From: Psammoneis japonica
Taxonomy: Eukaryota
Length of the DNA: 64,000 nucleotides
Assembly: GCA_008632985.1 (NCBI GenBank)
Contig: QPGO01000206.1
Location: 1-64,000 of the forward strand
Direction: 5' to 3'
Shown: piece by piece, positions 6,250-62,819 of the stretch
Numbering within the stretch: the first letter of the stretch is position 1
How the letters are laid out: each line of letters begins with the position of its first letter
Translations under genes and position numbers: made by a program
Notes under the pieces: generated by a model
Database searches by the model: none
The model's input: the letters and a program-made list of their open reading frames with translations, nothing else
Told to the model about the DNA's origin: nothing

Positions 6250-9125
6250 GGCCCTACAAGCTCGACGGTGAAGTCCCGGAGACAGCAGTGTCAGGACAGA
6301 CCGCCGACATTTTGCACATGTGCGAGCTCGGATGGTGTGACTGGGTCATGTTCAGGGACACGGCTGTCTCATTCCCTGAAGACAAGGAGGTCCTGGGGAG
6401 GTGCATGGGCCCCAGCAGGGATGCAGGACCGGCGATGACCACCAAGACACTCAAGGAAAATGGACAAGTCATCCACAGATCCTCTGCCCTGCCGGGCTCT
6501 TGCCCCAGAGGAATGGCATCACAAGACGCACTTGGCGTTACGGAACAAATTTGATGCCAAGGCAGAGGCCAAGCTTTGTCCCAGGATGACCATCAGCGAC
6601 ATTGACAACCCCAATGTGATCACTCCCACCTTTGATCCATGCAAGGACGACTCAGAACAAGACCCATCTGGTGCCCCAGAAGCTGACACGCCAACTGACG
6701 TGGCTCACAACATCTGTGTGAATGCAGAAGTTTTGCTGCCACATGGGCACACATGCCAGACCGGCAAGGTCAAACGGCAGAAGCTGAAGCCGGACAGAAC
6801 ACTGGCAGGACAAGCCAATGCCAAACCCATCCCAGACATGCGCGTCTGTGAGGTGGAGTTCCCCGACGGTCAGGAGGCAGAACTGGCAGCCAACGTCATT
6901 GCTGAGAACATGTTTGCTCAGTGTGACAACAAGGGCGACCAGCTGGATGCTGTCGTGGACCACAAGAGCAATGAGCATGCCATCCAGAAACAAGACGCGG
7001 TCTCCCAGGATGGCAGAGGGCACCGATTCACTTGGAAAACAACCAAAGGATGGCACCTTTGTGTTCATTGGAGAGACGGTGTTGCCTCTTGGGAGCAACT
7101 TGCAGATTTGAAAGAATCAAACCAGATTGAACTGGCTGAGCATGCCAGGGCGGGATCTGTTGAAGATGAGCCCACCTTTGCTTGGTGCATTCCACATGCC
7201 TTCGAGAAGCACACACAGATTGTTGCCGCTGTCAACAAGCGTCAACTCAAGCGGACACAAGTGCAGGACACGTGTTCCCAAGACTTGTGAAGAAGCCGTC
7301 AAGATTGATGAGGGAAATGAGGACCGACAATGGCAAGATGCTGTTGACAAGGAGATGGGCACAGTCAGAAAAGCCTTTGAGGTTGTTGACAATGATGAGA
7401 ATCTGGTGGGATGCCAGCATGTCAGATGCCACTTGGTCTTTGATGTTGAACTCCAAGACTTCAAGCACAAGGCCCGCCATGTGGCAGGGGGGACACACTG
7501 CTGAACCTCCGGCTGTGATGACATGTGCCAGTGTTGTCTCTTGTGAGAGTGCAAGGATTGTGTTCACTCTTGCTGCCCTCAACAACCTTGAGGTTAAAGC
7601 CGCAGACATCAAGAGTGTCTGCATCACCGCTCCCAACAGCGAGAAGATGACTGTGACTCTGGGACCAGAGTTCAGACCTGATGCAGGTGAGAGAGCGATT
7701 GTCCAGCATGCCCTTTGTGGATTGAAGAGTGCTGGCATGTCTTTCAGAAATCATTTGGCCCAATGCATGTGACACTTGGGATGGCTGCTGTGCCTGGTGG
7801 ACCCTGATGTCTGGATGATGGAAGAGGTCCGACCCAATGATGGGTTCCTGTGCTGTGCCTGCGCACTGTTGTGTGTTGATGACATTTTGATGGTGCACCA
7901 CGATGCCACATGTGCTCTAAAGGAGATTGAACAACACCTCAAGATGAAGCCCAGTTAAACGGGTGATCCCAAGATGCATCTTGGAGCCAAGATCCGCAAA
8001 GCAGAGCTGCCGAGTGGTGTCCATGCTTGGGACATGAGTTCCAGCAAGTGCGTCTCCAACAGGCTGTCAAGAATGTAGAGGCACATCTTCATGCAAAGAG
8101 CCTGGGGAGCAAAGACGTTGCCGTGCCGGGCAACGGCCCCTTTCCCATGTGACTGTCAACCCAAGGTTGACACCACGCCTGAGCTGGATGCCAATGAAGC
8201 CAAGTTTTGCCAGTCACAGGTGGGTGTCCTGCACTGAACAGTTGAACTCAGATGTGTGGATCTCATTGCTGAGGTTTCCAAGCTTGCCTCCTTCCTCACC
8301 ATGGCAAGGGAGGGCCACCTCGAGGCTGTCCTGCATGTGTGTGCAGGTGCCTCAAGCAAGAACAGGCACAACACCAGGCTGGTGTTTGATCTGACACATC
8401 CAGACACAGACATGTCTGACTTCAAGGAATGTGACTGCAAGTCATTTTGTGGGGACGTCAAGGAGGCGGTCCCCGGCAATGCGCCAATCCCTCCAGGCAA
8501 GGAGGTTGATCTGCACCTGTTTGTTGACTTTGATCATGCCAATGACAAGTTGACAAGGCATTCACACATGGGCTTTTTCATTTGCTTGAACATGGCTTTG
8601 GTCACATGGTTTTCCAAGTGCCAGAGCACCATTGAGATTTTGGTCTTTGGTGCCAAATTTGTGGCCATGAAGCAGGGCATGGAAGCCTTGCATGGTCTGA
8701 GGTGCAAACTGCGAATGATGGGCACACCATTCTTGTCTGGTCCGTCCTGCATCCATGGTGACAACATGTCTGTCATTCATGACACGCAGAGTCCTGAGTC
8801 TACTTTGAAGAAGTTGAGCTCGATTTGCCACACCATGCTGTTAGAGAGTTGGCAGCAATGGGTGAATCCCTCACTGGACACATCCGACTGGAATGCAATC
8901 CGGTGGACATCACCACTGAGATCATGTGCGGTGGCATGAAACAAGATGGACTTGTGAGCATGATGCTTCACGAGGGATTTGCAAAGTTCAGAAACCACTT
9001 CCCTCATCCCATTGGGTTTGTTGCAGGTCACTGGGGTTTCCTTGTTGCCTTTGTGCAGCCAAACATGACCAGACTGTAAATTGAGTCAAGGTGACTCAGT
9101 GTCTGCCTCATCAACTTGAGGGGAC
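6250..9125 (+). mobile_element. 5'-truncated, hypermutated Ty1/copia (CoDi-like) LTR retrotransposon: end of integrase, reverse transcriptase, RNase H, polypurine tract
   Basis: YKLDGEVPET..GWCDWVMFRD; TTKGWHLCVHWRDG..SWEQLADLKES; CHLVFDV..FKHKARHVAGG; HALCGLKSAG; LLCVDDIL (YVDD, 7872-7883). RNase H: FVDFDHANDKLTRHS, WFSKCQSTIE, GDNMSVI..PESTLKK. PPT-like TTGAGGGGAC at 9116-9125. Confidence 0.92.
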
Positions 9126-10190
9126 CAAACAATTTACCATGTGGAATTGTGATGCAGGAATTTGTGTGTTCAATGTAGAATTTTGTCAACAATGTGGACT
9201 CAATTTGTGTGCCAAGATGAGCTCACTTCTTGAAAACAGCAGCATGATGTCGACTCACACCTTTTCTTTTAGTCTGTTCCCCAGCTCTCACCTTCACAGG
9301 GTGTTTCATTCAGCGATCTTTCACTCATGCTTCCTCCTGTTGCACTCAGCCTCTGCCATGCTTCGTTGCTCACCGTTTCCAAAGCGCTGCTGTTTGTCAC
9401 CCTTGATGCACTCTCGTGCAACAGCAATGTCAAGCAATGCTTCCCACAACAGCACACAGAATGACACATTGTAAATCCATGAGTGGGGGCCAACTGCGCT
9501 TCTAAAAAAGCCTTTTCTTCATCACAGCTTTTCCCATGTGCAGCATGCTCCCCTGATCTGTTGGATGAAGATGACAAATTTGCTCGGTTGGAGGCTCTCA
9601 CAGCATGCCGCAAGGAAGGAGCTCCTCTGTCAGAAACTTGTTCCTGTGCCGTGGAATGGCGAGTCCAACAATCACCAGAGTTGTTCAAATGGCAAATGTT
9701 TGCAGTCCTCATGGGCGCGTCCTGTTGACTTGGAGCAATGTGTGATGACATGAGAGTTTGAAGCATGGAAGGCACAGAGGTCATTTTCATCCTGGTGCTG
9801 TTGTTGCCCTCACTGATGGTTGCAGCATGTCATGTTGTTCAGTGTCAAGCAAGTCACCCTCTGCTGACATCCTGAGCAATGCATGATGGCTTGTGGGCTG
9901 ACAGCAGAGATGGCCCACAGCAACCTTTTTTTGAGAAATTGGCAAGAAGCTGCTGCTTGAGACTGTTTGAGATTGTGCTTGCTGAGCTTTCTTTTGTCTG
10001 AGCTCCACTGCTGGCCAGTCCAGCACAAACGTGGGTGCTCCTGGCTGGCACATTTTTTCAACAACAAGCCGTGTTCTCCTGGCACCTCCCACAGCGGTGT
10101 TTGAAGAGATCGTGAGTGTGTGTGATGAAATTCTCTCATCCTTCAGCTCCCAGTCCACATTCTCATAGAGAGATTGCAGAATTGTAGAGT
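6260..10190. other. TpA-depleted hypermutated block 1 (copia relic plus unidentified decayed sequence)
   Basis: About 13 TA dinucleotides in 6260-10160 by eye, none in 6541-7594. For comparison, the 60 bp at 481-540 alone contain 6. Confidence 0.95.
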
Positions 10191-16687: not shown

Positions 16688-19600
16688 TTAAGTTCGAGTC
16701 AAGCTCTTATAGGCTTCCGTGACAGCCTGGAATCTCGTCGCCGTGTCTGGCAACTTTGATTTGTCCGGGTGGTAGGCCAAGGCGAGTCTACGGTATTGGG
16801 CTTTGATGACGTGGACCGGGCAACCGGGTGGTAAACCGAGCCTTGCGTACAAGTTTGGCCACTTGTAATGATCCCAGCGTAGCTTGGAAATATCTTCAAC
16901 TGGACGAGTGAAAACTGGTTGTCTGCCGGTACTAGCGGCTGCGCCGCGTTGAACAGCTCGTGCACGTGCTTCTCTGATAAGTCGTTCCTGCTCCTGCTGT
17001 GCAGCGCTTTGAGAATAGTTGTAGTTGTACGCGGTATCGTTGGGAAATTTCGCCGCGCTTTGAGAATAGTTGTAGCTGTACTCGGTATCGTTGCGAAATT
17101 TTGGCTTTGAAAACACAAAATTAGTGTTCTGTGAGTTGGGTTTTGCGGCATTTTCGGGTCTTGCTGTGCGAAGATTAGGAGGTACGTTCGCCTTTGCTGC
17201 TTTCCGCTTGGCAGCCCCGGGTTGCGGACACGGCTTCGCAGCACTCGCACCATACACTTGCTGAGCCCGCGGTGCTCCTGAACAGAAACTTCGAAGTGGC
17301 CTTTTTGTGGGCGGGATGCTTTCTGATGAGGAGTGCAACGATCGCTTATCGCAATTGTCGTTCTCGCTCAAATCAATGACAGCAGCTCGTTTTGGTGCCT
17401 TCGGCTTGCTTTCGGTACATCTGGATGCAACATCATCAACGTCTTCACTCAAATCAATGATAGTCTTCTTGGTCTTCGAGGAACGATGTTGGGTACTCGT
17501 GACTTTGGGCTTCTTAAGCGTTGGTTTTGCCTTTTTGAGAACAGGAGAAATTTCGTCATCGCTGCTGTCGATCACGATTGGGTCATTGGGACCTACTCGT
17601 GCACGTTTTAATGCTGATGGTTGAGTCCCAGGGACTTCCCGTTGTTCCAACCTCGCTCTCTCTCCCTCGCTCTCAAGACGGCAGTCGCTCACAATGTGGC
17701 TGTCAATGTTGCAAGAAGTTTCTTTCCCATTCGCTTGATCAGTTGCGCTCGCTTTCTTGTTATCAGACACCTGCTGGCGGCCTGTTCCAATTTCGCGTAA
17801 CGACTTCGACCTCTCAGGGCCATCGTCGCATGCACTGCTATCCTTGGCATGCGCTGACGACGTCGTAATACGATCCATATTGTAATTTTGCTTCATTGGC
17901 ATTTCACTTCCTTTCATTTCTGTTGTTTGTCGTTTCATTTCTGTTGTATGTTGTTGCGGCTGTGCAATAAGATCGCATTCAACATCTCCCGCACTTCTGT
18001 CGAAAGTATGCTCCTTTGAACCCTCGCCGTTGGCAACACCAATATTGTGGCTCAGCGGGTGTGTCATCTGCTCCGCTGAATCTAAACCCTTGCTCGTCTT
18101 TCTAGATTTGGCAATGCAATCGTCTACATGCACTCGAATACCCATAGGTTCCCTGGAAGGCGCCAACGGCGAACTACTCCCATGGCCGACACCATTCGTC
18201 TGAAGTTCGGCCACGCTGGCTAGATCCACATCGCTAAACTTGGCTGTATCTTTGCACTCCCCGCTAGGTTTCTTTGCGACTTTGTCCATCTCTTTACATT
18301 CGAGATCTGTATTCTGGGAGGAGGGTGCGCCTGACGACGGAGACGCACGTTCGCTGGCCATTTCCGTGTCCTTTCTTAACCCCGCACCGCTGATGTCAGT
18401 CAAGATAGCGCGTGACGGTCTTTCGTTGCAATAAGTGTCCGAAGATAGTTTCGAGGACTTGACAAGCTCACCATCTGACGAAGCATCTCTCGTTGTGTAA
18501 CGAGATGACAAATTCTTCTGCATCTGATTTTCTCTTGGCGCTGCTTTAACTCGAGAGCTACCGGGATCAGAAGTTTGAATTTCTCCTAGTCGGGAGAACG
18601 AGGCACTTTCTCCGTTGTTTCCTTGATCCTCAGACTTGTTTATATCGATGCCGTTTTGATCTGCCGCCAGAGGCAGAATCTTTTCTCTCGATCCTTCGGT
18701 GGAGCTGACAGCCACCGAGCAACGGGCGCGTTCGCTGCCTATATCGACCACACCCGCGGATGCCACGTGCAGCCCTTCAGCTTGAGCCGGAAGTTTCGCA
18801 GAAATACTGAATGGTTCTTCTGCCGCTTTCGTATTTCGTGCAGCCAATGGATGCTGGGTCGTGTCTTCCGCATTAGCACCATCACCTTGCTTCTCATTCA
18901 CATTTCTCTCCGGCGTTTGCTTTGCGTTCGGTTTATCTAAAACTGGTCGATCAACGCTGCGCTTGTCATCCTTCTGCACAGTGTTAACATCATTCTGCTG
19001 TTTCTCTTCAATCACTGCTGCAAACGGACCTTCTCCCGCATCCATTCCCCGTGCATCTATCGGCTTTGCCAGTACTGGCTTTTCAGAACATCGGTCGGTA
19101 CTGACTGGCTTCCCTTCCTCGTCGATGCCTCTTTTTCCTGTTAACCCTACAGCATCTTCCTTTGCAGTTGCTTTGGGTGGAGCCTTGAACGCCACATCTC
19201 TCTTTTCACCGAATATTGCCGCACCCGGTGCTATGCGTAAGCCCTTTTCAGTATTCGGTTGGGCTGTACTCTTCGAACTCTCGGCTTGACCTCCGCTACT
19301 GTAGGATCCTCTGTTACCTTGTCGACTAGATCGCTTCGTTGAGCTAGTCTTTTGTTCGGCTTCGGGTTTCTTCTTGGTCTTTTCTTCCGCCCGAGACCAT
19401 GTTTTGTTGGGGAATAACTTCTTCTGTCGCCGATTCTTGGGCGATTGCTTTTTCCGTTTTTTTCCTTCGATACGATCCGGGTGATCCTTCCTAACCTCTT
19501 TACGCCTGCCAACGGCGCGCCTTTTATCAGTCAGCAGCACTTCTCTTTCTTTCGCTCGAGTCGTCTGTTGTTGTTTCCCTAACGTTCTCGAGACATATGC

Positions 19601-34783: not shown

Positions 34784-34817
<34 letters not shown>
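34471..34817. repeat. Two (CT)n microsatellites (34471-34497 and 34791-34817)
   Basis: Read directly from the sequence. Confidence 0.9.

Positions 34818-41231: not shown

Positions 41232-41235
<4 letters not shown>

Positions 41236-41269
<34 letters not shown>
41236..41269. repeat. (AG)n microsatellite
   Basis: Read directly from the sequence. Confidence 0.95.
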
Positions 41270-41271
<2 letters not shown>

Positions 41272-42163: not shown

Positions 42164-42324
42164 AAAAGCAGCAAAGGGCTTCCCTCACCATTTTTGCTTG
42201 TGAAATGCTATTACAGGTTGGAGGTGACGGCATCTAAATTCTGACAGGAATACAGGTACAAAATACCCTGAAGTGCATAGAGTACCGCTGGCAACCCTAC
42301 CACCCCACTAGAGACAAAGAGAAT

Positions 42325-47309: not shown

Positions 47310-47510
47310 CTGATTTGACAAAGGTGAAGGGCACGCACATGTTGCTGTGCAAGGCCAAGACACATGCCATGTTCTTTGATGGGGTGGCGAACATTCAGAA
47401 GGCCACAAGAATTGTCGAGGTGGAGTTTCCCTGGGTTTCCTGTCCACATGGTGCCAAGCATTGCATGGCACTTTTCTTTGAAGATGTGGCTTGGCTGAAA
47501 CCCGTTGATG
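47310..47510 (+). mobile_element. hAT-superfamily transposase fragment (DUF659-like)
   Basis: MFFDGVANIQKATRIVEVEFPWVSCPHGAKHCMALFFEDVA resembles the DG-A-N-x-K ... H-x-x-x-H-x-x-x-L-F-F-x-D segment of hAT/DUF659 transposases. Confidence 0.65.
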
Positions 47511-50500
47511 CAAGTGAAACAGTCTTTTCTTCATCCACCATGTCTTTCCCAGTTGTTCTTTGCACCACAGATGCTCACACCAAGGTGCAAGAGACAAAGT
47601 TCTGCTGAGCAACAAGGTGACATGCAAGAGTGTGCTTGTTTTGCAAAGCCACACAAAAGAGCACAGCAGCAAAGCAAGGGCAGATTGAAAGCCAACAATT
47701 GTGTGAAAACATGGAAAAGCACCAACATGAGTTAATTTCTTGTCTTGCACATGTGCACCAGCAGCACTGAAAATCTTTGACAGAGCAGCTGCACTGACAC
47801 ATCATTCATTGCAAACCCACCCTGTCAGCACAAGTTGAAACAACTCTCTGCCCACCTCCAAAAACCAGCGGTGCACCATGCAAAGCTGTTGCAGCAAGAA
47901 AGTGTCCTCTCCAGCCAGAGTGCTCCTTCTCAGCTGCCATTCAGGGGCTCCATCCCCTGTTTGCTTGAAAGCAAACCATGCTGCTTTGCATTTTCCATCT
48001 TTAAATGATGGTCTTCCTCTCTCAATCATTGAGTCTGGCTTCTGATCTGAAAGGATCTTGGAGGTGGAGCACTGTCAAACCAAGAAAGAATGACATGACA
48101 AGAATGCCCATCATGCAAAGACCCTTGCTCTGCTTGGCAGTTGCTTCCAACCACCAGCACCAGCTCTGGGGCAGCTTGAAGCAACAAAGAGGAAGGGGCT
48201 GCAGAGAAGCACTGCACACAATGAGAGGTGCTGGTGGAACATCTTGTGTGAGCCAAAGCTCAGCAAAAAATTGCCAAGTGACTGCATTGTTGAGCAGCTG
48301 ATGCACTGTTGCAGAGCAAAACCTGTGTGCCCGAATGAGCTGCAATTGAAACTTTTCTCTTGCATCTTTTTTGAAGCATCCCTTGCAAACATGATTTTGG
48401 GTTGTGTGTTTGGGCTGATTGTTTTGAGTGGCAGCTGCCACAGCACATGATGTGGACCTGGCATTGTTGGAGGCCATTTGTGGCATGAACTTGCTGACTT
48501 GACATGCTTGTGCTGCCAACAATGAAGGTTTCACCACTTTGAAGGATGTCAGAAGTTTGTGAATCTGGTGCTGACATTGCCAAGAGATGGCAAAGTGGTG
48601 CCTGTCAGCTCATGCAAGCAGTGCAAAAGGGAGGGCAAATCTTGGCACTGCCTGGAGCAGCTCTGGTGGGGGCCAGCAGCCACAGCCCATGCCGGTTAAA
48701 ATCAAAAGGGGCATCTTGGAGGCTTTGGCTGGTGGCTTGAATGTTTTGCATCCTTGGTGACTGTGGTGCACATGAAAGTGCATTCCTGCACTTGTTGTTG
48801 CAGAAAGTGGGGGAAATGGAGGCACCATTTGCAGTGTGTTGTGTGAACCCAGGCTGGTGCAATGGTGTTCACAAACAATGGGGAGTGTGGCATGGTGTCA
48901 GTTGCCACTTGCCAGCATGGTGGCATTTGATGGGGGTGCTTGTCAGGAGTGCTGTGTGCTGAAGAAGGGTTTTTGGCTGGTGCTCCAGGTTTTATGCCAC
49001 AGACTCATGGCTGAGAATGAAGCTGGCTGACACAACACAGCACAGCATCTGAAATGTCAAAAGATGTGTCATGCCTCCTGGAGTTTCACAGTCAATTGTT
49101 CTTCAGTGACTTGGAGAATGCTCACAATTTTTCTGTCATGGAAACAGCAGAAAGCTTTGCTGTTCTTTGCTGCAGCAGTTTCTGTCATAGACAGGGAAAG
49201 TCCAACCCAATTTGTTTGGAAGAAGACATGGAACTCCAGGCTGCTCTGTTCTGCAATTCACTGGCACTTGAGCATCAGCCCTGGACTTGGTTGGTGGTGC
49301 TGCAGCACTGCCCCAAATGACTCTGACAGAGTGTCCATCATCATTTGAGGATGATGTCAATGTGCTTGTGACTGAGCTGCCCCAGCGAAGCATTTGCCAA
49401 CAAGGTTCTGAGAGCAAGCTGTGCTGTGTGGGCAGCATGCACACCAAGCTTGTCACAGGATGAGCTCCTTGAATGGGCTGGCCACCATGTCATGTTGCTC
49501 ACAGTGGCTGCTGTGGTGCAAAACAATGTCAGTTGTGTCTCGGAAGCAACAAAGATGTGCAAGAGAAAAACAAGCACAGCCACACAACTGGCAAGTCACA
49601 CCATGGCTTCACTGTAGCCAACCCAAACTGAAGCTGTGAAATGTGAGATGTGTTTGGGTTGGTCTGTCTCAAGAAAACAAAAATGCAAAGGTTTGTGACT
49701 TGTGAATCTTGTTTCTCTGTGTGCTTGGGCAGTGGCAGAGATGGGGCCCTGAGCCTTGGTGCAGAGCTGGTTTTGCAATGACAAAAGGATCATCACTTTC
49801 TCTGGTGTGTTGCAACAAGGGGACAAAATGTTGCCTGGCCAAAATGAAATGGAGTGTCCAGCAACTGAAATGTTTGATGTTGTGTTCAAGCAAATGACGC
49901 AAAACCAGAAATCACACAAGCCAGCAACAATGATGGCTCCATTCCAAATGACAAGGTCCTGACTTAGAGACCATGTCAAAACAAGAGCAGGAACCTTTTG
50001 TGCAGCCCAGCTCTCATGCTGTTCAAGAGCAGAGGTGGCACCTTTGACTGTGGTCAGCAGAGAATCAACACCTCCACCTCTGGCAAGGGCATGAGCCATC
50101 AGTCAATGAAGTTGACAAGGTGCATGCTTCCCATCTGCAGCCTCCCCAAACCCATCTCCTGGGGTTGTGTTGGGAATTGAGAGGATGGTCATGACAGCTG
50201 TGCCCTTGCTCTGGCTCAATTTTGGGGTCTCCATTGATTGTGAGCATGCTGCTTGCATCAAGAGATGTGTGAATGTCTCTGGTTGATGAGCACCACTCCA
50301 CCACAGGCCAGTGTCCAGGACAACTTGGTCAAACCAGTGTCTGCTGGCAAACATGCAGCACTTTCTGAAGCCTTGCCCTCTCTTCCTGAAGTTCCTCTTC
50401 ATTTGTGAGTTGGAGATTTCTTTGGTCTTTGTCAGCATCACAACACACTCCTGCCCATTGTCAAATTCTCATGGCTCAAATTTCATGTTGAAATGGTGCA

Positions 50501-52544
50501 TCAGAATCCAATCCTCTTCAGATTCTTGCCTCCAAAATGAAGCTGGCCTCACACTCACACTTGATGTCATCTTTGGAGCCATGGGTGCATGTGACCTGTG
50601 GCTTGACACTGATGGTGTGAGAGAGCTGGGTCTCCAGCATTGAGTGCTTGGCAAGAAGCTGCTTGAGCCTTTCAGTGCGTGGGTGTGTCATGGTGGCAGT
50701 CCTCTCCCTGCCACACAGCAGCATCCACTCGTTTTTGCTCAACACCAGGCCTGGATTGGTGGGCCACATCACCACATCTGCAACCTTTGGGAGCAACTCT
50801 TGGTCAGCTGGTTCAACAAATTGAACAGCCACATCTTTTTCTTTCATGACTTTCTTGACCAACTCAATGGAACCAGACAGACAGGCAGCTCTGAGAAGAG
50901 CAGCTTTCAATCTTTGCTGTTTTGCAAAACTTTGAGCCCACCTTTGACCAATCAATGCAACTGCAGTTGAGAAGACTGACTTTGAACAACTCAGTTGTTG
51001 CACAATCAACCTCCTTGGAATGAAAAAAAAGCAGCTTTGATTGCCAAATCAATGACTTCCTTTGACTTGAGGCACCGGCAAAGTCTCACAATTTTGATCA
51101 GTTTTCCTTTTTGAAATGGTTTTGGAATGTTTCATCTGGTCTTGAATGAAAAGAGTTAATTTTGGCGACCAGCATTTTGACAAAAGTGTTCTGGCATGAC
51201 ACCCTCACAAGCTTCTGCAACAAATCTGCAGTTGTGAAAAGCAAACCTTGCTTGGCACCAAACAAAATCTCAGCAATGCACAGCTCATGATGGTTTCACA
51301 ATCAATCACATCCATGATGTGCAAACAAACAATGAGGTGCAATCACTCCGCCCACACCATTCCAATGGAAGCCATGGGCCAAGCTTGAATGACATGGAAG
51401 ACTTCCAAGGGGAAGAAAAAAGCAGGCAGCTGACGGGTGCGGAGCTTGAATGCAACATGCAGCTTTCAAGAACATCTCCAATGGCATCTGCTTGTTCAGG
51501 TGGCTGCCATTCCAAACAAACATGGTGCCCCCAACGTGTGTTTGCTTGACGAGTTGACAGAGTTGACTGGTGCCTTGGGACCACACACACCATGCAAAGG
51601 CATTTTGAGACTGTCACATTTGCCAGTTTTGCCGGAGCTTTCTGGATGGTTGCCAATTTACATGCATTCAAATGAATCAAGACTGCTCCAGTGGTGTCAG
51701 GGTGAGTGCTCCCAGCACACTCACTGCACAGGTGCCATGCAACAGATTGCCAGCCAGTCTTCAAATGAGTGGCTCTTCGTCAATGAGTGCTCAGGTGACA
51801 AGAGAAAACATCCAAACAACAGGGAGTGCAATTCTTGGAAGTGCCGTTGCACATCCTGCTGTCACATTGTTCCCAATGTTGTGGAGAGCAGTGGCCACAG
51901 AGAAAATCATCTTTCTTCCATGTTGGGTTGCAAGCATCAGAACCTCCATCCAAAGACCATTTGTGGTGCTCCAAGGAAAAGTCGAACGAATGTTCACTCC
52001 AAACCCGGTCATTCCTTGCACTTTTTGGAACACTTTGCAGCACAGGAACCTTCAGATGGACATTTCACAGACCTGTTTTCTGGCATGACAAGAAAATCCT
52101 CAAACCAAATGCTGCATCCTTGGAAATGACACCCAGTCACATGTGACAAAGCTGATGTGAGTGATGGCCTTGGACTCAACTCTGGTCCTGTGAGGGGCAG
52201 TTAGAGAGTGAGTGTTTTTTTTCATTCTCAACATTTTTCATCCAACGTCTGTTGGCAATTGACTCATGTTGCTGCTTTTGCTCTGTGATTGTGGCATGCA
52301 CCTGAGCAGTCCATTCAACATGAGGCATCTGCCATTGGATCCACAACTGCGAGAGAGATTCCTTCTGATGGGAGAAATGCGTTCGTCTCAGATGAGGATC
52401 ACGTCCAAGGCAACGGCACCCAAGGTGGCCTCTGCATTGCAAGATGCCTTTTTCAACTCTGATGCATTTGCTTCAAATCAACACAGCGAGGTGTGTGCAC
52501 AACAACTGGAGGAGGATCATGCAAGTGTTTCCATCCCAGATGAT

Positions 52545-53175
52545 CCCACTCACGAAACGGCATCAGCCATGGTGCCTGTGGCACAAGAGACTTGTTCCAA
52601 TGAAGAAACTTCTGCACCAAAACAATGCATTGGCTGGCATGGTTGAAGAGTGCATGCAAGCACGAGAGTCCCTCATTGCAGGTGCCAGTGCTGCTGTTGT
52701 TCTTGTCATTGTTCCAAGGCAGTCCACTCAGATGGGAAGTGGTGCACTCAACAATGATGCCATTCAGAAGAGGGCATCAGCCGTGGCACCTTTGGTGCAA
52801 GAGATTCCTTCTGATGATGATGCTTGCACTGGTGTGGTTGAATCGTTGGCGGAAGAATGGGTGGGTGAAGAATGCGTGCAAGCACGAGGATCCTTCATTG
52901 TGGATGCCAGCGTTGCTGTGGCTGCTGTCGTGGTTCCAAGACAGTCCCCTCTGCTGGGTGATGGTTCCTTCAACAACCATGAGACGGCATCAGCCATGGT
53001 GCCGTTGGTGCAAAAGGCTTGGTCAAACAATGGCGCTGCTCTTCCAAATCAATGCAGTGGCTTTGCTGAAGCATTGGCAGCAGAGGAACAGGTGGAAGCA
53101 GAAGGCATCCAAGTGCCTGCATCCCTCATTGCAGATGCTGGTGCTTCTGTCATTCCAAGGCAGTCTGCTCAGCTT
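52545..53175 (+). repeat. About 3 diverged ~220-235-bp coding-type tandem repeats
   Basis: EEC.QAR.S.I...S.....VPRQS at ~52645, ~52867 and ~53101; ETASAMVP occurs twice. A separate 108-bp-period duplication (GGSDVEAFKQ.QECFQ) lies at 53420-53575. Confidence 0.75.
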
Positions 53176-54471
53176 GGGGAAGCTCTTGGCAGTGTGCATC
53201 TTCTTGCCACTGATGGGCAAACTGTTCAAAGGTTGGCCAGAATCTTGAGCTGTCGGGGAAGAGTCATGCGGCAGTTGGAGTGCTTTCGGGAGTTTAGAAA
53301 CAGGAATGCTTTCAAGCTTGGTGGGCAACTCAAGGTGCACCCAAGGAGTTGCAAATGGTTTCCAAAGGCAAGAAACTTCTCAAGCTTTGTGTGTGTCTTA
53401 ACAACTCTGATGCCCCATGGTGGCTCTGATGTTGAAGCTTTCAAGCAAAAACAGGAATGCTTTCAAACTTGGCTGGCAACTCACAACTGCCATGATGCTT
53501 CAATCCACTTGCCCCACATGCACTGTGGGGGCTCTGATGTTGAAGCTTTCAAGCAAAGACAGGAGTGCTTTCAACACATGTTGCAGATTGTTGCAAACAC
53601 CAAAATCAGTGCTCCTGCACCCCTTTTGTTGAAGCTTTCATGCCAAAGGCAAGAAGGTTCTCAAGCTTGGCAGGAAATCCAAACAACTCTGTTGTCCCAA
53701 TCAGACCATTGTCATCATGAAGAGCTGTCTGACGTTTTGTTTGTGAGGAAAGGCGGTGCAATCATCCAAAAAGGTCATTTTTTGTTGAAATCTTGCGATG
53801 CGTCGGCATGAGTTGCTGTCACGAGAAGGCAATTTCCTTTGAAAACAAGGATTTCTTGTCATTTCTCGTGCATCACATCTTTTCTTAATCGAAGTAGAAA
53901 GAACGCCTGCACCTTGAATTGCACCAGAGGATGTTGGCCGCGTCGCAAAGACGATCTTGGAGGGTGACAAGGGTCGTTTCTCGACTCGCCGCGCGATGAT
54001 TGTGCGGGGATTCGGAATTTGTCGCAAATTTTGACATGTCGCAAATTAATTTTTCGATTCGGTAGCTAGCTCTCTACTACCTACTAGCTAGTAGAAGTAG
54101 CTACTACTAGCTAGAGGGCCCTACATGACTCACCTCCGGCCGTTCCGCCATTGCCCCGCGTCTGTCCCTCCCCCCGCGCCACTACCGGTACATAGGTGAC
54201 GTTGCACGTGAACTTCTCACGCGCGCGTACTGCTACATGTCAAGTGCAATTCTGTGCTAGAGCTGCTAGTAGCGGCCCGATAGAGCAGAGAGAGATACCT
54301 CGTCTTCTCTATTACTGGTAGAGACAGAGAGTTTTCGATGCCAATAATGTGACTAAAGTAGCTTCTCTCTATGAGAATCTTCTATCCGCGCTGCATGGTA
54401 CCACGCAGTACGAACATGACGAGCAAAACGTGTATAAAGTGAATTAACCACCAATACCAAAACTAATCTCA

Positions 54472-57400
54472 TCAGCCGTAGACAGTCATGAGCTCGTCAC
54501 ATCGCTGCTGAATATCCGAGGAATTACACACTGACCGCACATGAGTCATTCTCCGAACGTCCTTGAGCTTTGCGGCTTCCTCCAGGGCTCGATCCCACAT
54601 GCTAACCTCGCAAAACAGATCATATCTTTCTTCGACCGAAATCACGCGGTCGATAAAATGCATAATGTAAGACACGTCTTGCTTTCCACGAATGGCAGCA
54701 ACAGCGAACGGCTTGTACCCGATTGGAGGCTTTGTCTTGGAATCAGCAAGAGCTCTGAGGTGGTCCCATTGTCCACTTTGTGCCAAGGCGCGCACCTTGA
54801 TGTGCCACAAAATCTTTTCCGGTACTCGAAACTTCTTTGCCAGCTTGTCAGCATCACTCAAGAGCCGATTCGACTCGCGCTGGTTCACTGAAGCGTGCTT
54901 GATTACAGAAATAATGGTGGACGAAACCGACGAGCTTTCAGGAAGAAAGTCACTGGAGCCATACTTTTTTCGCAGTATCTACATACAACAGCAGCAAGAA
55001 TTAAACGTGAGCATACTGGTCCGTGACTGCTGGAAAACAGCGGCTGCCCTTACCTCTTGATCGTTTCTTAACTCAAGGTAATCGTCGGTGCATGACTTGT
55101 GGAATGCGGTTTCTTTTCCAAGACCAAAGACACGGGAGGCTTCCTGGAAACAAAAGATTGCAGAAATGAAAACAGCTGTGAGGACAGAGTTCTAACGCAA
55201 ATGCCCGCCACCATGCATGATCGTCGAATGCTTACAATTAACATGGCTTGCTTTGCTCTTTTGTCGTCTTTCGATTCCAAAGCTCGTTGCACCACAGCTA
55301 TCCCCGCATCTCCAAACTTTTGTCCCCTCAAGAGCAAAGCCTTGACACTTGCGACATCAGGGAGTGTGGCTAAATACTGCCTCTGCAGATTGAAGGCTTC
55401 GAACGTAAACTTCGAAACGACAGTTCCCAAAAAATTAGTTGGACCGAGATCCATCGATGAAGCCATGCACACTTTTTCGTATTCCATGAGGGCGTAAAAA
55501 ACAAAATCACCATCCCTAAGAGGAGAAGCAAAACATTTGTGCGAGTTGTATGAGCAAACGAGAGTAATTCATTTCCCCCTTTTGAGAAAGAAACGTACCT
55601 TGCTGCCGTCGCAACAGCCACTGCATCAGCGTATGATCCAATCGAAACCAATGCTCGAACCTTGTCGGCAACACTCGACTCTAGCATGAGCAAAAGTTTA
55701 GCTACACCAGGACGACCTGCAGCGTTGGCAGCCAGAGCTACTGCCGCGTACCCACCGCGAGTTTGTAGAGGACTACCGCTTATGTCGACATTTGCATTTT
55801 CATTGATAATTTTGATGGCGTTTTCAGCAGTTTCCGCGTCGCTGTGTGACTTGTCATTGGAAACGAGGGCTATGGCCTTGGAGGAGCGAGCCACCAGTTG
55901 CACTGACTTGGGAAGAGAAAGGTATTTACTAATGCAAGTTGCAAGTGCAGGGCGTTTCATGGCGATTAAGCGAGCCACGACGCCAGTGCGGTAATCGCGT
56001 CGTGCTGAGAAGCCGTAAGAACAAACCCGACAGCTGGATGTCTCAAAGCATTCAAGATTCGTAGTTTCCTCGCCGCTGCAACAAACTTTATGGCCGTGGG
56101 AGACGGCATGGTTCGCCCGTCGCTTGCAGTGGTCGATCCACCCATGATTTTCCGCTGCTCTGCAGTGTCCTTGTAGCTAAAGTGCATCCCATACGAAGCA
56201 GCACGCAAAAGTCGCTTCTGCGTTAAAATGTCAAACTCCAGCGTTGCAGCCTCTGTGCAAGTTTCAATGGCTTCCAACAACATACCCGTCTTTGTAATCG
56301 CCCGGGCGGCTTCATCGGATGATGGCGACCCTGCTGCAAACGCATCCGAAGCGTCAAGCAACATTGCCGACGGTTCGATTGAACCAATCCGCATAAGTGC
56401 CGCAGTGGAAGGTGGGACTCGCTGCAAAAGCTCAACGGACGAATCTGTGACAACTCGACAGCAATCAATCTCTGGCACAATATACAAGTGATCGGCATCT
56501 TCAAAGGGGAATCGAAGCCAGTCACCATAAGGTCCGACCATTAAAACGCCCAAATTCTTCCAATGCAGCACAACACTGTCTTCCCCACACCATTTCATTT
56601 CAGCAGGAGGTGCCGATGATCCTTCGGATGTATCAAAGTCCAATACCTTGGTTTCAAAAGACGTGGAAATGACTGTTAGAATGGATGCCTGTGTAAAGCA
56701 TGCCAAGAACCGTCCGTTTGGAGCAAAGGTCATCGATACAATCGGAGATGAAATGCGTGACCGACAGTCCACGTCAACAATATCCATATTGACACTGTTT
56801 ACAACCACGACGGAATTATCCGACGTTGAAAGAAAGATCTCAGGGTGTCGGGAGTTTGTGTGAAACCGGGGTAGCACGGCCAAGGCGACATAGGAATAGT
56901 AATTCTCACTAAAACAAGCATTATAGCGAAAGAGGGCGACGCGTTCAGTTCAAGAGCAATGACGACAACCGACCGAATGTCCACACGATTTACCTTGCAT
57001 GAGCCGCCGTCGCCAAGGGCGTCACAATAGCATAATGCGGGGGCAAAGTGTCCGTTTGACTGGACGCGGAACCAAACATTTCGTCGCTGACCGCCGCGCC
57101 ACCAGCATTCGAGACTATTTTTCGAGAAGCCAAATTGGCGCTGTCTGCATAGCTGGCATCATCGTGGTCGTCAAAGAGTTCGACAAGCGCACACTGCATT
57201 GACGATGCCAATACGGCGACTCCACCTTCATACACACATGCCTGAAGCAACTCGGTGCCTCCACCCTTTTTCCCGGAAGGAATAATGTAGAATGGTGGCA
57301 GCACCATGGCACCCCGCAAATCGTAAGTTATACAAAGTGAATCACGCATGACCACGACAATGGTCATTCGGTCGGTAAAGCCGAGAGTCAATACATTGGA

Positions 57401-58060
57401 CGCCAGCACATTCTTTTCCAACAATTCCCTAGGAGGAAATTCGACTCGTGCCAAGGGTCGACCGGCATTGGTAGCAATGCGCAATTCAGTACAAGCCATG
57501 GCTCGCGTGGTGGTATCTGCACCTAGAAGCGGGATAGTCATGGCGCATATGGGACCACCATGAGGACAACCAGCCACCTTGGTCGTAGTTGTTGTATTCA
57601 ACAATTCGCGAATGTCTCGGGCATCTAAGAGACTTGAACGATGCTGACTGACAAAAGCAGGAGGAAAGGCAGCCAATCCGTGATTGAGCGAGTCCATAAT
57701 CCTATCGTCGTGCTCTTTTTCTTCCTTATCAGTCTCTTGCTCTCTGTGGTTCCAGCTAATGTTGGAGTAAACAGGGACCCGGCGGTACGGCAAATCTCCA
57801 AGGTACTGCCACGAAGCCTCAACCGGAATGTCATCCTGCGGTGTTTCATCCAGATCCACCTCCTCGTCGTCATCTGGTACGTCATAATCGTCTTTTGTTT
57901 CCTCGAAGTAATCGTCGCTGTCGGTCTCGAACGGATTTGTCGTTGCGGCTGCAAAGGGTTTGCTGTCAGATTCCATCATGGGCGACGCAGAAACATCAGG
58001 ACTTGCCGCTGCTGGATCGTCGTCGAACGAGTCCTCAAACGGATTCGTCCCACGAGGCAT
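54472..58060 (-). CDS. VPS16: Vacuolar protein sorting 16 (HOPS/CORVET subunit), multi-exon; 1-nt frameshift near 55989
   Basis: VAGCPHGGPI, FAPNGRFLACFT, WCGEDSVVLHW, PEIDCCRV, QKRLLRAASYG, LRILNALR, KKFRVPEKILWHIKVRALA..GQWD, PPIGYKPFA. Confidence 0.93.
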
Positions 58061-58480
58061 AGTGAATAAGGTCAATTAGGTAATAATAAATACAGAGAGA
58101 GCGTCTTTGTGATGTTGGCGAAACGTTCCGCATAAACTGAAGCAGTGACAGCAACGGTGCGTTCTGCGGCGACTTCCAGGCAGAAATGAAATCGCCATCG
58201 CGCAATGCAATCACAAGAGCACCGGTAAAAACGACGTGCTGGTTCGGCCGCCCACCCGTCATCGAGTTCGGGCCGCAGACCGCAGGTTTCGATTTCGAAA
58301 GATTTTCATTCTGGGGGAAGTCTCCAGCTGAGCTCTCTGCAGTCGGCTCCACTGTGGAAACAATGAAAAAAGAAACACGCACGCGGAACCAACTCTCATC
58401 ATCAAACAAAACTGGAGGCCGTATGATGGTCAAGAAGGGACCAATTCCCGCATCGGAACTCGAGTTCGGCACAGCACAAC

Positions 58481-59150
58481 TTGACCCGGAAGAGCTCAGT
58501 GCCATTGCTTGACAACCAAGGAACAATGATCAATGGCTTTTGCACAACCTTGCACTTGAACTCATTGGCAAACAAGCATCATGACAGCGGGGTGCAGTGC
58601 AGTGCGGATGACTTTGTTCGCTCTCTCCATGTTGAGCTAAAAAGGCATGGCCCGGAAGGGGGTTGGGCATCATTCCTGAACAAACTGCAGGAACAAGAAA
58701 AAGTGGAAACAGATGTTGAGAAAGACAAATTTAATCTTCACACAAGTCTTCCACAGACCGCACGAAGCTGGCCATTGGGCTTTGTTGGTTGTTGACCGAG
58801 CCAGACCTGGACAGGATCTGTTTTTGTGTTTGTTGACTCGGTGCCAAATTTCCACAAACGGTCGCTGCTTGACCTGCAGAACATGGTCACCTCTGCACCT
58901 TTCATCAACACCCAGGCCAAGCAGATGAGGGCTCAAATGTCTTGACAAGCAAGGCACACAAATGATTGTGGCACACGGATGTGTTGCACTGCGGCAGCTC
59001 ACACGAGAACTCTGAAGCTCCAAGGGTTTGCAAGCAAAGAATCTGCTGGAGCAAGAAAGGGCATGACAGAAACAGTGAGCAGCATGTCTGTGTGGCATGC
59101 ACCTGACATGTCAACAAAGGATTTGGGTTGTGCGGGGCAGAAGCACATTT
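58481..59150 (+). pseudogene. Ulp1/C48 cysteine protease relic (a domain often carried by DNA transposons)
   Basis: TMINGF; LIFTQVFHRPHEAGHWALLVVD (His 58773); VFVDS (Asp, ~58835); Q..TNDCG (Cys 58967). Frameshifted and hypermutated. Confidence 0.7.
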
Positions 59151-60148
59151 TGGATTGCCTCAAGCATGACAAACTTGCCGTTTCTTTTGATTGACAAGTC
59201 TGCAAACTTGCCATTCTTCAGCTTCAAAGCATCACAAGCCACTGTGGCTTGCTTGCATTGTTCTAATCTGCAAGCATGACTTGCTCTCATGTCTTCAGTT
59301 TCATGGCACCACATGAGATGAGCCCGTCTCCTCCATGCTTGCTCACCTGGCCCGTGCAAAGCGATGGAGATGAGTCCGCTCCAACCTGAAAACAGAATGG
59401 GAAGTTACGGATGATGAGGAAGATGCTGCTGCTCCCAATGAAGAGGCTGAAGGCAATGTGGAATTGCCCAGCGATGTTGAATGAATGCTCAGATCAATGC
59501 AGTCATGTTGGACTCACAGTTGACACCGAGGATCATTGCAGAGTTGCAATCAATCTGAATCAACAACAGCTTGTGGCATGTCAATCAACACCTCAACACC
59601 TGCCGGCAGCTCTCTGACATTTGATCAGAACACAAAGATGTTCTCTTTCACCGTTGTAAAGTCACTGGCCATGTTGTTGTTTGACAAGTTCATTGTTGAT
59701 CCTTCCTCTCTCGCGACAACTTTTCGAAATGCCCTTTCATTCAACTGACAAGCGTGAACAAAGGCCCATCAATGGCGAAATTGCCATCCACGTCACTCTT
59801 GAGTGCCAGTGTGAGGACTGTCTGGCAGATCTTTTCAGCTGTCGATTGTTTCATCTGACCTGTTGAACTCACTCTCATGTCTTAGAAGCTTTTGAGAACA
59901 TCACAAATTGTCCAATGGCAGTGCCTCGCATTGTGATGGCAACTGTCAAGAAGAATCGGCGTGCGACAGAGGTTTTTGGGCCTGCTGTCGTTGTTCACCT
60001 GCAATGGGGACAGCAACAGTTCGATCTTGAAGGTGTGAGGGACTCAACAATGGAGCACCATGGTTTGGGATCAAACAATGCCCACATGCTTTGTGCTTCA
60101 TGCCAATGCTAACTTGTTGCTGCAGATTGGCACCTCCAATGACAGCAC

Positions 60149-62460
60149 TCAACACCCGTTGCTTGCAACAATCTCCCAGAAAAGAGACTGCGCAATGCAC
60201 CTCACAATCCCGCCCCTCAATGGAGTGTTTGAGAATTGTTCATCCCCAGAGCCCTCTTCGGTGCACTCGCAGCAGTCGAACCTCCAAAAAGGGCAAACTG
60301 TCGGTGCGGCTCGAATGAAATCGAACAGCAGACAACTTTCATTCAAACTCGCCAACCGGAGATTTACAATCTCCTCCAGCACCTTAGAGGACGACGAATT
60401 TTTGACATCCTTCAACCACTCCCAATGTCCGACCTTGTTCCTTTCACAGAGACAACCAATTTCGTTGCGCACCTTGGTCATCTCGGCAAGAGCGTAGTTC
60501 GGATGCCCAAGCCAAACTTTGCAGAGGGAGCGATTTCGACCCTCACTCAACAAGGTCTTGATTTCTTCGGCGGTGCCAAACGTGTCGAAAGCACTTCCGA
60601 ACCCAAGAATCAGGGTTTTCAATGTCGAATTGTCCGTCAATGCTTTGACAATCACATGGGCACTCTCTTCCAACATTTTACATTCCAGCTGGAGTTCCTC
60701 AATTGCATCGTTTGCCAAAAGCATCGCCTTGAAGCAATTTGCCGCTTCCAACCCAATCGTGTCACCCGGGGTGTCCTGAACAATTTGCAAAGTCTTGAGA
60801 GTCCTGTTGTGATGTTCAAGAGCTGTCGCAATGAGCTCAAGATCAACACTGCAAGAGTCTTCCATGTAGAGATTCAGACGCAGCTCAGTGAGAACCGCGT
60901 TGTCCGCAAGTCCCTCGGCAATTGCACGACAAAGTTCAATGGTCCACTCACTGTTGACAAAGAGAGCAAGTTTCTTGATGGACCTGCTGGCCAGCAGAAT
61001 TGATCTCAAGTGAGTTGCGCCCACAGGCCCAACTTGTTGGTCACAATCGATCTCCAATGTCTCCACAGTTTGATTGTCTCGAAAGGCCGTAGCGATCTGT
61101 TGACCTTGATTCCATTGAAGAACTTTATCTTGCCCTCTTCATTGTTGCCCTCGACAGCAACATCAGCGTGCACGTCCCCAACTTGTTGGTCACAATCGAT
61201 CTCCAATGTCTCCACAGTTTGATTGTCTTGAAAGGCCGTCGCAAATGCCTCAAACCCTTCCATTTGGAAGGGATCAAATCCAAGCACGAGGTGCCACAAT
61301 GAAGTGTTGTGTCAAAGACCTCGTCCCACCGGATGCAAGAATCGATCGTGAAGACTAACTTCATCATGTAAAAGCTCGAGCCTTTCGAGCGTTCCATTCT
61401 CAGCAATGGCATCACCCAATGCATCTGCTGCATTTGGGCCACAAGCAGCGTACGAAATCATCAAGTTCTTCAGCGATCTGTTGACCTTGATTCCATTGAA
61501 GAACTTTATCTTGCCCTCTTCATTGTTGCCCTCGACAGCAACATCAGCGTGCACGTCCCCAACTTGTTGGTCACAATCGATCTCCAATGTCTCCACAGTT
61601 TGATTGTCTTGAAAGGCCGTCGCAAATGCCTCAAACCCTTCCATTTGGAAGGGATCAAATCCAAGCACGAGGTGCCGCAATGAAGTGTTGTGTCGAAGAC
61701 CTCGTCCCACCTGATGCAAGAATCGATCATGAAGACTGACTTCATCATGTAAAAGCTCGAGCCTTTCGAGCGTTCCATTCTCAGCAATGGCATCACCCAA
61801 TGCATCTGCTGCATTTGGGCCACAAGCAGCGTACGAAATTGTCAAGGTTCTTCAGCGATCTGTTGACCTTGATTCCATTGAAGAACTTTGTCTTGCCCTC
61901 TTCATTGTTGCCCTCGACAGCAACATCAGCATGCACGTGCAGTTCCTGCAACCTGCGACAGCTGCCCATTCCATCCCCGAGACCATGCCACCCTTCCTGC
62001 ACATGAGCCCACACCAACCATTGGTCAGTTCCCAGTGCTCGATCCAACACAGAAGCGCCGCCAGGGCTCAAAGCGGAAAAACATTTCAAACGGGGCACTT
62101 TGCAATGCTCCAGAAGTGTGGACAGAGCCACCACGGCCACGTCGTCAAGCCGTGCATTATCGCCACTGTGTTCGCGCAGGTCGATCGTGACAATTGTTTT
62201 GGGGGTCGCATCGCTGTGGACAATGTCCACCATGTCGCAGAGCACTTTCGTGGTTTCCTGGATTTGGTCCTGAGGGTTGTCTCCGAGGGCAATCCAAATG
62301 GTGCCGAAACAACGCGCGTTTCTGAAGGCATCAAGAAACACTTCTTTGCCATCTGGACGACGCAACACCAAATCCCATTTGCTCGCGTCATCCTCTGTTT
62401 GATGAATCTCAAAAGAGGGAGGATCGGGCCCGAAAAAGTGTCTCACCAAATGAGTCATGT
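60149..62460 (-). pseudogene. RNI-like leucine-rich-repeat protein gene (NLRC3-like, diatom-type), disrupted
   Basis: Repeated L..N..L..L.L units (GLADNAVLTELRL, LEHHNRTLKTLQI, LTDNSTLKTLIL, IAENGTLERLEL, LRHNTSLRHLVL) and a C-terminal LLFDFIRAAP. TGA at 61312-61314, frameshift near 61846, and an internally deleted repeat copy. Confidence 0.8.
61028..61938. repeat. Young 381-bp tandem duplication: two full copies (61177-61557, 61558-61938) plus one internally deleted copy (61028-61176)
   Basis: The ORFs at 61125-61442 and 61506-61823 are near-identical. The two full copies differ by about 9 substitutions and 1 indel. Confidence 0.95.
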
Positions 62461-62819
62461 TTGCAAAGTGACGGAACTGAAGCAGTAACAACTGGGGGAA
62501 CGACGACGGTCTAAAGTGAACGACTAACTTCAAACTGTATGTCGATAGCTTCGAAGGTACAGCACAGGGCGCCGCCGTAATGTTACCGGTGCTACCGGGA
62601 CTACCGGTAGGTGCAGCGCGCTGTGCTGCTGTCCGCTAGCTGAAGATTTTTGATGAACGCTGGACAGACACGTCTTCTTTTGCAGCAGGCCAGCGCGCTG
62701 GCTGGAGACTTCCCAGTCTTCTTCCGTACCACTTACAGACCTCCCAGAAGGGAGTGGAGATCTCGAGACGCTTTACTTCCCCAATTCCATACCGGTACAT
62801 CCAACAAACTTTCACCACC

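Follow-up and report, generated by a model that had tools for sequence, protein, structure and literature searches.

The question raised by this stretch of DNA is why the dinucleotide TpA (TA) is nearly absent from four long blocks whose neighbouring host genes have TA at normal density. The stretch, positions 1 to 64,000 of contig QPGO01000206.1 (assembly GCA_008632985.1) of the diatom Psammoneis japonica, is called the window below. A preliminary description of the sequence had reported four sharply bounded blocks that are poor in TA and rich in TG and CA, and had attributed them to a new genome-defence system hypermutating TpA to TpG or CpA. From the analysis presented here, we consider it probable that the blocks consist of mobile or repeated DNA of the diatom nuclear genome and were rewritten in place by two dinucleotide-specific transition processes, one acting on TpA and the other on CpG.

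Dinucleotide composition of the four blocks

Dinucleotides were counted in sliding windows along the 64-kb window and exactly within each block, and were expressed as observed/expected ratios (o/e). The blocks are located at 6260–10190 (block 1, 3931 bp), 29460–41470 (block 2, 12011 bp), 43970–53880 (block 3, 9911 bp), and 58135–62485 (block 4, 4351 bp), and contain 15, 34, 18, and 23 TA and 88, 79, 88, and 180 CG, respectively. Over their total length of 30,204 bp, 90 TA were found, whereas ~1154 would be expected from the 38.2 per kb of the host DNA (Poisson P printed as 0). The density in the blocks was thus 3.0 per kb, a depletion of approximately 13-fold, and the overall TA o/e was 0.05 in the blocks and 0.58 in the host DNA. 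The sliding TA o/e ranged from 0.00 to 0.12 within the blocks and from 0.4 to 0.86 outside them, while the o/e of TG and CA rose from 1.16 in the host DNA to 1.79 in the blocks, with sliding values of 1.4–2.2. These counts agree with the preliminary description in both the position and the nature of the blocks. It had, however, overlooked a parallel loss of CG, the density of which fell from 58.8 per kb in the host DNA to 14.4 per kb in the blocks (o/e 0.24). CG was scarcest in blocks 2 and 3 (6.6–8.9 per kb), followed by block 1 (22.4 per kb), and block 4 was the mildest (41.4 per kb). In each block, the loss of TA was more complete than that of CG.

The losses and the gains were balanced. 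The decreases in TA (35.2 per kb) and CG (44.4 per kb) amounted to 79.6 per kb, and the increase in TG plus CA, from 144.9 to 223.2 per kb, was 78.3 per kb. The total of pyrimidine-purine (YR) steps was consequently almost the same in the host DNA and the blocks (241.9 and 240.6 per kb), as was the GC content (0.485 and 0.487). After strand symmetrisation, only TA, CG, TG, and CA differed, and the remaining 12 dinucleotides stayed within ~10%; the o/e of AA, for example, was 1.17 in the host DNA and 1.21 in the blocks. TG and CA were present in similar numbers over the blocks (3447 and 3295, respectively), and a runs test on their order along the strand, by which strand-coordinated mutation tracts were sought, was negative in blocks 1–3 (z between −0.4 and −1.1) and gave z of +2.3 in block 4.

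Direction of change in a copia element and a paralogous segment

The direction of change can be read where relatives of the block DNA exist. Block 1, in which TA o/e was 0.02–0.10 and CG o/e 0.23–0.43, contains a fragment of a copia-type retroelement, in agreement with the preliminary description. Its reverse transcriptase-RNase H region at 7170–8936 on the plus strand forms a single reading frame with four in-frame stops and zero Tyr codons. The frame had 260 relatives at E ≤ 1e-5 (best 7e-165), which carry RVT_2 and include annotated reverse transcriptases of Fragilaria crotonensis. Columns with at least 80% agreement among 35 copia homologues were taken as conserved; there were 319 such columns, and the block-1 copy was identical to the consensus at 207 of them. 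Since Tyr codons (TAY) require TA, the conserved Tyr columns report TA loss. None of the 17 was kept: 12 had become Cys (TGT or TGC), four His (CAT or CAC), and one Gly (GGT). At the family consensus L-L-Y-V-D-D, the block-1 copy has Cys at the place of Tyr. Nine of the 22 conserved Arg columns were kept, and six had changed to His (CAY) and two to Cys (TGT). Tyr accounts for 4.3% of residues across the 35 homologues and is absent from the block-1 copy (0%). Among the 120 copia relatives listed from the protein database, there was no Tyr-less protein and none with less than 2.3% Tyr. In addition, 80 environmental (metagenome) loci of the family had TA o/e of 0.44–1.19. The absence of TA-poor loci among these 80 says nothing on other organisms, because both scan patterns contained Tyr and TA-free copies were thus undetectable.

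The second comparison was between a segment of block 2 (31626–32030, plus strand) and its paralogue at 42322–42712 (plus strand), which lies between blocks 2 and 3 in a region with TA o/e of 0.55–0.82 and has normal TA and CG. The two copies are 76% identical. The 19 TA sites of the normal copy were read in the block-2 copy as TG at five sites, CA at nine, TA at one, and other dinucleotides at four, and its 22 CG sites were read as TG at nine, CA at nine, CG at one, and others at three. In the converse comparison, the TG of the normal copy was unchanged at 43 of 56 sites and the CA at 28 of 39 sites. Together with the Tyr columns of the copia element, these results bear out the previously suggested direction from TA to TG or CA. 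They also exclude an inherited composition for block 1 and for this segment of block 2.

Changes among tandem copies and between the window and reads

Copies that arose within the blocks indicated that the changes took place in DNA after amplification. Tandem Repeats Finder (TRF) detected a satellite in block 2 with a 190-bp unit and 4.9 copies (37515–38440), and thus the earlier statement that a satellite was affected holds. When its five copies were compared, 10 of the 36 columns consisting of YR steps only were split between copies with TG and copies with CA, and at one position, judged by eye, two copies had TA, one had TG, and another had CA. Independent hits on an ancestral TA or CG in the separate copies would produce such TG/CA double differences. 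In block 4, TRF detected a 381-bp tandem duplication with 2.2 copies (61091–61938) that are 97–98% identical. The copies differed by eight substitution events, namely five between CG and TG or CA, two between TA and TG, and one CA-TG doublet, and by one indel; no other type of substitution was observed. Since this duplication, therefore, both processes have far outrun all other change. Considering also the near equality of TG and CA and their unclustered order, the preliminary view of a strand-symmetric process acting on DNA within restricted domains was supported.

The window was further compared with a public sequencing run, here X1, in which 84% of the words sampled from a test stretch were present and whose platform is not on record. 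A contig of 5323 bp assembled from X1, with a k-mer depth of 127.7, lies on 44175–49490 in block 3 and showed 21 differing letters and seven gaps. A contig of the host region had a depth of 124.3, and the single-copy depth was thus ~124–128. This depth and identity indicate that the reads are accurate. Of the differences between the window and X1, 40 were listed and 982 more lay beyond these. Of the 40, most of those in block 3 were exchanges between CG and TG or CA, and three were CA-TG doublets. Among those listed, the window had TG or CA where X1 had CG at 11 sites, and the reverse was found at two sites (44046–52334; binomial P 0.02). This asymmetry may reflect a few miscalls in the assembly related to 5-methylcytosine (5mC), an allelic difference, or CpG decay that has gone further in the assembled haplotype. 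At two listed sites, the window had TG and the reads had TA; one of these (43926) was just outside block 3.

Sequence context of TA loss and its independence from CpG loss

TA loss was separable from CG loss. At the left margin of block 4 (58135–58490), two TA were found against 13.6 expected, and CG was not reduced (29 against 20.9 expected). The right margin (62130–62485) was similar, with one TA against 13.6 expected and 25 CG against 20.9 expected. Blocks 1 and 3 were intermediate at their left margins. The converse was observed in L016, one of the metagenome copia loci, in which CG o/e was 0.01 and TA o/e was 0.44. L016 thus shows CpG decay on its own, with TA at an ordinary level.

The two losses also differed in their dependence on flanking bases. 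The numbers of TA in the blocks and in the host DNA were 0 and 95 in the context ATAT, 1 and 185 in ATAC/GTAT, and 2 and 115 in GTAC, respectively, and 22 and 60 in TTAA. In contrast, the survival of CG was flat over all ten flanking contexts (0.18–0.35). The share of TG among the products was 0.63–0.68 when the 3′ base was C or T and 0.14 when it was A, in a rough estimate that assumes a host-like ancestral composition and symmetric CpG products. These values suggest that the context effect sits 3′ of the mutated A, so that T-A-Y would be struck most and T-A-A least. The Tyr codons of the copia element changed in the same direction (TAY to TGY in 12 cases and to CAY in four), although this was not significant (P 0.08). 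The converted pair would therefore be the A:T of T-A-Y, which is R-T-A in the duplex, and the attacked base of the pair is not distinguishable from sequence.

Contents of the blocks, edges, and neighbouring features

Apart from the copia element, the contents of the blocks were mostly difficult to assign. A Pfam search with 124 pieces of open reading frames (ORFs) from blocks 1 and 2 yielded one weak RVT_2 match (E 0.008) and four matches at chance level, and nothing credible was obtained in block 2, which is regarded as repeat DNA without recognised origin. In a search with 80 ORF pieces from blocks 3 and 4 and their flanks, the only match within the blocks was a sub-threshold one to DUF294_C. 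Block 3 is likewise DNA without recognised origin, and for a 471-aa ORF in it (52396–53808), 8000 candidates were scored and none proved to be a relative. Neither the hAT nor the Ulp1 relics mentioned in the preliminary description were reproduced by these searches or by a lenient rerun on five ORFs. Block 4 appeared to contain an LRR_6-family gene on the minus strand. Its minus-strand ORFs resemble RNI-type repeats, and a 329-aa ORF at 60152–61138 (minus strand) had 244 remote relatives, of which all eight checked were LRR_6 proteins. The earlier assignment of a leucine-rich repeat (LRR) gene was thus supported indirectly, by the relatives; the block-4 ORFs themselves gave no Pfam match, nor an LRR match in the lenient rerun.

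For annotation, such blocks escape Pfam and repeat finders, as Tyr, many Arg, and several Ile, Leu, and Val codons were rewritten. Moreover, TAA and TAG are gone and only TGA stops are left, which results in long spurious ORFs. In six frames, blocks 1–4 contained 241 stop-free pieces of at least 70 aa, which gene callers could mistake for genes. Tyr-less, Cys- and His-rich transposon frames and TA-free blocks can serve as a genome-wide marker.

The edges of the blocks with respect to TA were sharp to tens of base pairs. For instance, TA occurs at 29452 and next only at 30347. The adjoining host genes identified by Pfam were a pyruvate kinase ORF that ends at 29341 beside the left edge of block 2, a GNAT ORF (43107–43643) between blocks 2 and 3, and two Vps16 ORFs (54472–54978 and 56990–58075) between blocks 3 and 4; block 4 starts ~60 bp past the end of the Vps16 N-terminal ORF. 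No tRNA gene that might act as a boundary element was found in the window. Short motifs are shared by the DNA just outside the blocks, which has normal TA and is rich in CTAG, at 29328–29424, 41499–41605, and 54108–54126. They include an identical 19-nt stretch at 29352–29370 and 54108–54126, a 22-nt direct repeat bracketing block 2 (29403–29424 and 41499–41520), and an 18-nt inverted match between 29328–29345 and 41588–41605. These motifs may be insertion ends, a sequence preferred as a target, or a boundary element.

Several observations concern the host DNA. For a conserved host protein encoded by a TruB ORF, the best named relatives were diatoms only (Seminavis, Nitzschia, Mayamaea, Fistulifera, Attheya, and others), with identities of at most 66%, which places the window in a diatom and not in Bigelowiella natans. 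A second run, X2, was taken as RNA-like from spliced joints over the Vps16 gene; its contigs skip 54978–55598, 56908–56994, and 57273–57353, of which the latter two are bounded by GT..AG on the minus strand, and these stretches are likely Vps16 introns. X1 contained a diverged second form of 57086–57627 with indels, which suggests heterozygosity. Finally, a 1.4-kb internal duplication with 66% identity was found at 18061–21081, within a long minus-strand ORF (16688–20539) that has DnaJ at its C-terminal end; this region showed a strong AT skew of −0.28 to −0.30.

Proposed mechanism and targeting

In the mechanism that we propose, the first process would be a TpA-specific mutator that converts the A:T of TpA to G:C on either strand, by which TA becomes TG or CA. 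It would strongly prefer 5′-T-A-Y-3′ (5′-R-T-A-3′ in the duplex) and act weakly on T-A-A, and it would have come near saturation in the blocks while ceasing within tens of base pairs of the neighbouring host genes. The second process may be ordinary decay of CpG to TpG or CpA, most simply through deamination of 5mC in methylated repeats. It would be slower and would extend over a somewhat smaller area than the first. The chemical step of the first process might be enzymatic adenine deamination by a TadA/ADAT2-like enzyme acting on DNA, which we regard as possible rather than probable. The native target of bacterial TadA is U-A-C, which fits the suggested T-A-Y preference. Targeting would follow silencing or the recognition of foreign or repeated DNA, and the outcome would be irreversible inactivation, with no Tyr codon left and the CGN codons of Arg decaying.

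The X2 run speaks for silencing. The host genes were covered in it, but its depth was 0 over 45168–49836 and 50504–51837 in block 3, with 0.67 in the bin between them; over block 4, it was 7–38. With regard to targeting, a repeat with normal TA lies at 41735–42163 (plus strand), 265 bp to the right of block 2, where the local TA o/e was 0.82, and again at 54237–54681 (plus strand), 357 bp to the right of block 3; the two copies are 87% identical over 447 bp. The TA o/e at these copies (0.82–0.86) is the highest in the window. In X1, the summed depth was 1157 in the bin 53839–54505, which starts ~400 bp before the second copy, against the single-copy depth of ~124–128. The unmutated repeat and the raised depth suggest that being repeated is not sufficient for targeting; the repeat is either too young or exempt. 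Separately, the summed X1 depth reached 3693 at 53778, inside the right end of block 3. The sharp edges would fit sequence-guided targeting or a chromatin domain that is stopped by active promoters.

Several points weigh against rewriting in place by these two processes. No de novo mutation was observed here, and ongoing activity would be indicated only by the tandem copies and the few polymorphisms, including the two TG-TA sites. X1 may derive from the assembly's own sample and hence not be an independent biological replicate. Direct comparison with the ancestral state covers block 1 and 400 bp of block 2; for blocks 3 and 4, the case is built on composition and the tandem copies. The TG/CA dimorphic columns of the satellite and the CA-TG doublets are derivable from an ancestral CG as well as from TA, and the product analysis behind the flank preference is rough. 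The 87%-identical repeat remained unmutated beside two blocks. As for the enzyme, the natural substrates of TadA/ADAT have a pyrimidine before U33.

Alternative explanations

The alternative that survived best, although we consider it unlikely, shares the targeting and the outcome described above and differs in the chemical step. A TET/JBP-type dioxygenase would oxidise the T of R-T-A to 5-hydroxymethyluracil or 5-formyluracil, and mispairing of 5-formyluracil with G would result in a T to C transition. This possibility, which was among the candidates of the preliminary description, is compatible with the context effect, since T-A-Y is R-T-A on the other strand and the sequence is silent on which of the two bases was attacked. 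Thymine hypermodification is known in dinoflagellates, which are also members of the stramenopile-alveolate-rhizarian (SAR) protists. The fixed mosaic of TG and CA, however, needs no modified base, and the only proposal published for the signature, as given in the preprint compared below, is adenine deamination (bioRxiv 10.64898/2026.01.13.699255).

It is less probable still that an ADAR-like activity with U-A preference edited the elements at the RNA or cDNA stage, before integration, and that they arrived already poor in TA, in which case the edges of the blocks would be the edges of insertions. The base-pair sharpness of the edges, the direct repeat around block 2, and the retroelement in block 1 speak for this explanation. 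It does not account for the satellite and the LRR_6-family gene, or for satellite and tandem copies that differ from each other at exactly the sites in question. At one and the same locus, such sites also differ between the window and the reads, and the similar numbers and unclustered order of TG and CA indicate that no single strand was edited. To our knowledge, ADARs are confined to animals.

We judged it very improbable that the blocks are a sequencing or assembly artefact in which a modified base in TpA or CpG was misread as a transition. The 11 to 2 excess of sites with TG or CA in the window and CG in the reads could indeed represent 5mC miscalls in a long-read assembly. A misread base, however, predicts two strand-coherent versions, consisting of all CA or all TG, and the observed sequence is one fixed interleaved mosaic, which is also present in the conserved codons of the block-1 copia element. 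Furthermore, the high-depth X1 contigs carry the same TA-free sequence at full single-copy depth, and hence it is not a basecalling artefact; the artefact check suggested earlier thus came out in favour of a TA-free state in the DNA, with the reservation that the platform of X1 is not on record.

The explanation that the donors or families always avoided TA and CG, with no mutation at this locus, draws on the lack of identifiable relatives for blocks 2 and 3, whose ancestors cannot be inspected; it seems as remote as an artefact, given the normal Tyr content (4.3%) and TA o/e (0.44–1.19) of the copia relatives, the TA and CG of the block-2 paralogue exactly where the block copy has TG or CA, the exact mass balance, and a state common to four unrelated types of sequence. 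Equally remote is error-prone or biased repair recruited to methylated DNA, either as Pol-eta-type WA to WG mutagenesis, proposed in the preliminary description, or as T:G-mismatch repair biased to G:C: CpG decay does co-occur in most of the blocks, but TA was lost where CG is intact at the block-4 margins, the fully CpG-decayed L016 retains TA, and the unchanged o/e of AA (1.17 and 1.21) shows that the target is not WA, by which Pol-eta-type mutagenesis of A to G at both TA and AA is disfavoured.

Comparison with known systems

The preliminary description had distinguished the blocks from repeat-induced point mutation (RIP), plain 5mC decay, and strand-asymmetric editing, and this distinction was upheld by the composition, the strand symmetry, and the satellite and tandem copies. 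RIP in ascomycete fungi is likewise restricted to domains and, through dinucleotide-specific transitions of DNA, leaves mobile elements full of missense and nonsense changes. Unlike the process described here, RIP changes C to T mostly at CpA, makes TpA, and lowers the GC content, whereas in the blocks TA is ~13-fold down and the GC content is 0.487 against 0.485. RIP is also triggered by duplication before meiosis; in the window, the 87%-identical repeat with raised read depth and the paralogue at 42322–42712 keep normal TA. Decay of CpG driven by 5mC accounts for the half of the changes that leads from CG to TG or CA, in which the survival of CG was independent of context. It cannot remove TA, and TA was lost with CG intact, as CG was lost with TA intact in L016.

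Deaminases provide two further comparisons. TadA/ADAT-type enzymes convert A to I, which is read as G, at an A after U or T, but they are not known to act on double-stranded chromosomal DNA in a domain-wise manner. ADAR and APOBEC also disable mobile elements through deamination-based hypermutation, and ADAR favours a 5′ U. They differ in acting on RNA or cDNA with strand asymmetry and on reverse-transcribed elements only, whereas satellite and tandem DNA were affected here without strand bias.

The closest known system was described recently in Bigelowiella natans, in which integrated DNA of nucleocytoplasmic large DNA viruses (NCLDV) and virophages undergoes TpA to TpG/CpA hypermutation (Mettrop et al., bioRxiv 10.64898/2026.01.13.699255, April 2026). 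According to the main text of this preprint, two integrated viral regions mutated ~1000-fold faster than the remaining genome in mutation-accumulation lines, A to G or T to C changes made up 230 of the 231 mutations there, and the GC-biased ones were all on TpA. The genome contains 124 clusters that are poor in TpA, rich in CpA and TpG, and have an excess of reverse-transcriptase and transposase domains, and an ADAT2-like adenine deaminase acting on DNA was proposed (bioRxiv 10.64898/2026.01.13.699255). The claim of the preliminary description to a new system has thus been overtaken. A full-text literature search, excluding subscription journals and bioRxiv supplements, found no description of the TpA signature in diatoms. 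The literature check called for earlier therefore yielded the B. natans preprint and no diatom report.

The likenesses between the B. natans results, as presented in the preprint, and the present ones are the change of TpA to TpG or CpA on both strands, the confinement to regions adjoining normally mutating DNA, and a long-term footprint that is poor in TpA and rich in CpA and TpG. The differences are as follows. The host is a chlorarachniophyte (rhizarian) there and a diatom (stramenopile) here. The targets there are viral; here, they are a copia element, a satellite, repeats, and an LRR_6-family gene, and no viral genes were recognised. The NCLDV region has a Rho of 0.45, whereas the diatom blocks are saturated at a TA o/e of ~0.05. 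De novo mutations were observed there, and the clocks used here are indirect, namely the tandem copies and the few differences between the window and the reads. The CpG co-depletion and the suggested 3′ pyrimidine preference are features of the present blocks; the words CpG, trinucleotide, flanking, and diatom have 0 occurrences in the main text of the preprint, and its figures and supplements may hold flank data. The separability of TA and CpG loss and the apparent preference for T-A-Y far above T-A-A, which would constrain any candidate enzyme, hence go beyond that main text.

If the reading favoured here is true, the TpA hypermutation of one rhizarian alga operates also in diatoms, an ecologically dominant and separate lineage, and is seen in the diatom at its end point, as transposon and repeat islands beside normal genes. 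More tentatively, and with some doubt, diatoms and chlorarachniophytes might share an ancient homologous defence. This would be a sequence-guided DNA mutator that reads T-A-Y and erases TpA once mobile or foreign DNA has been newly recognised; it would be quicker than cytosine methylation and would not depend on it, and no Tyr codon would survive within domains whose edges are set to tens of base pairs. In that case, RIP-like irreversible silencing would be widespread in SAR algae and would have gone unnoticed in their genomes. We conclude that the diatom blocks represent the same kind of process as that of B. natans, in a different lineage, at saturation, and accompanied by CpG decay.

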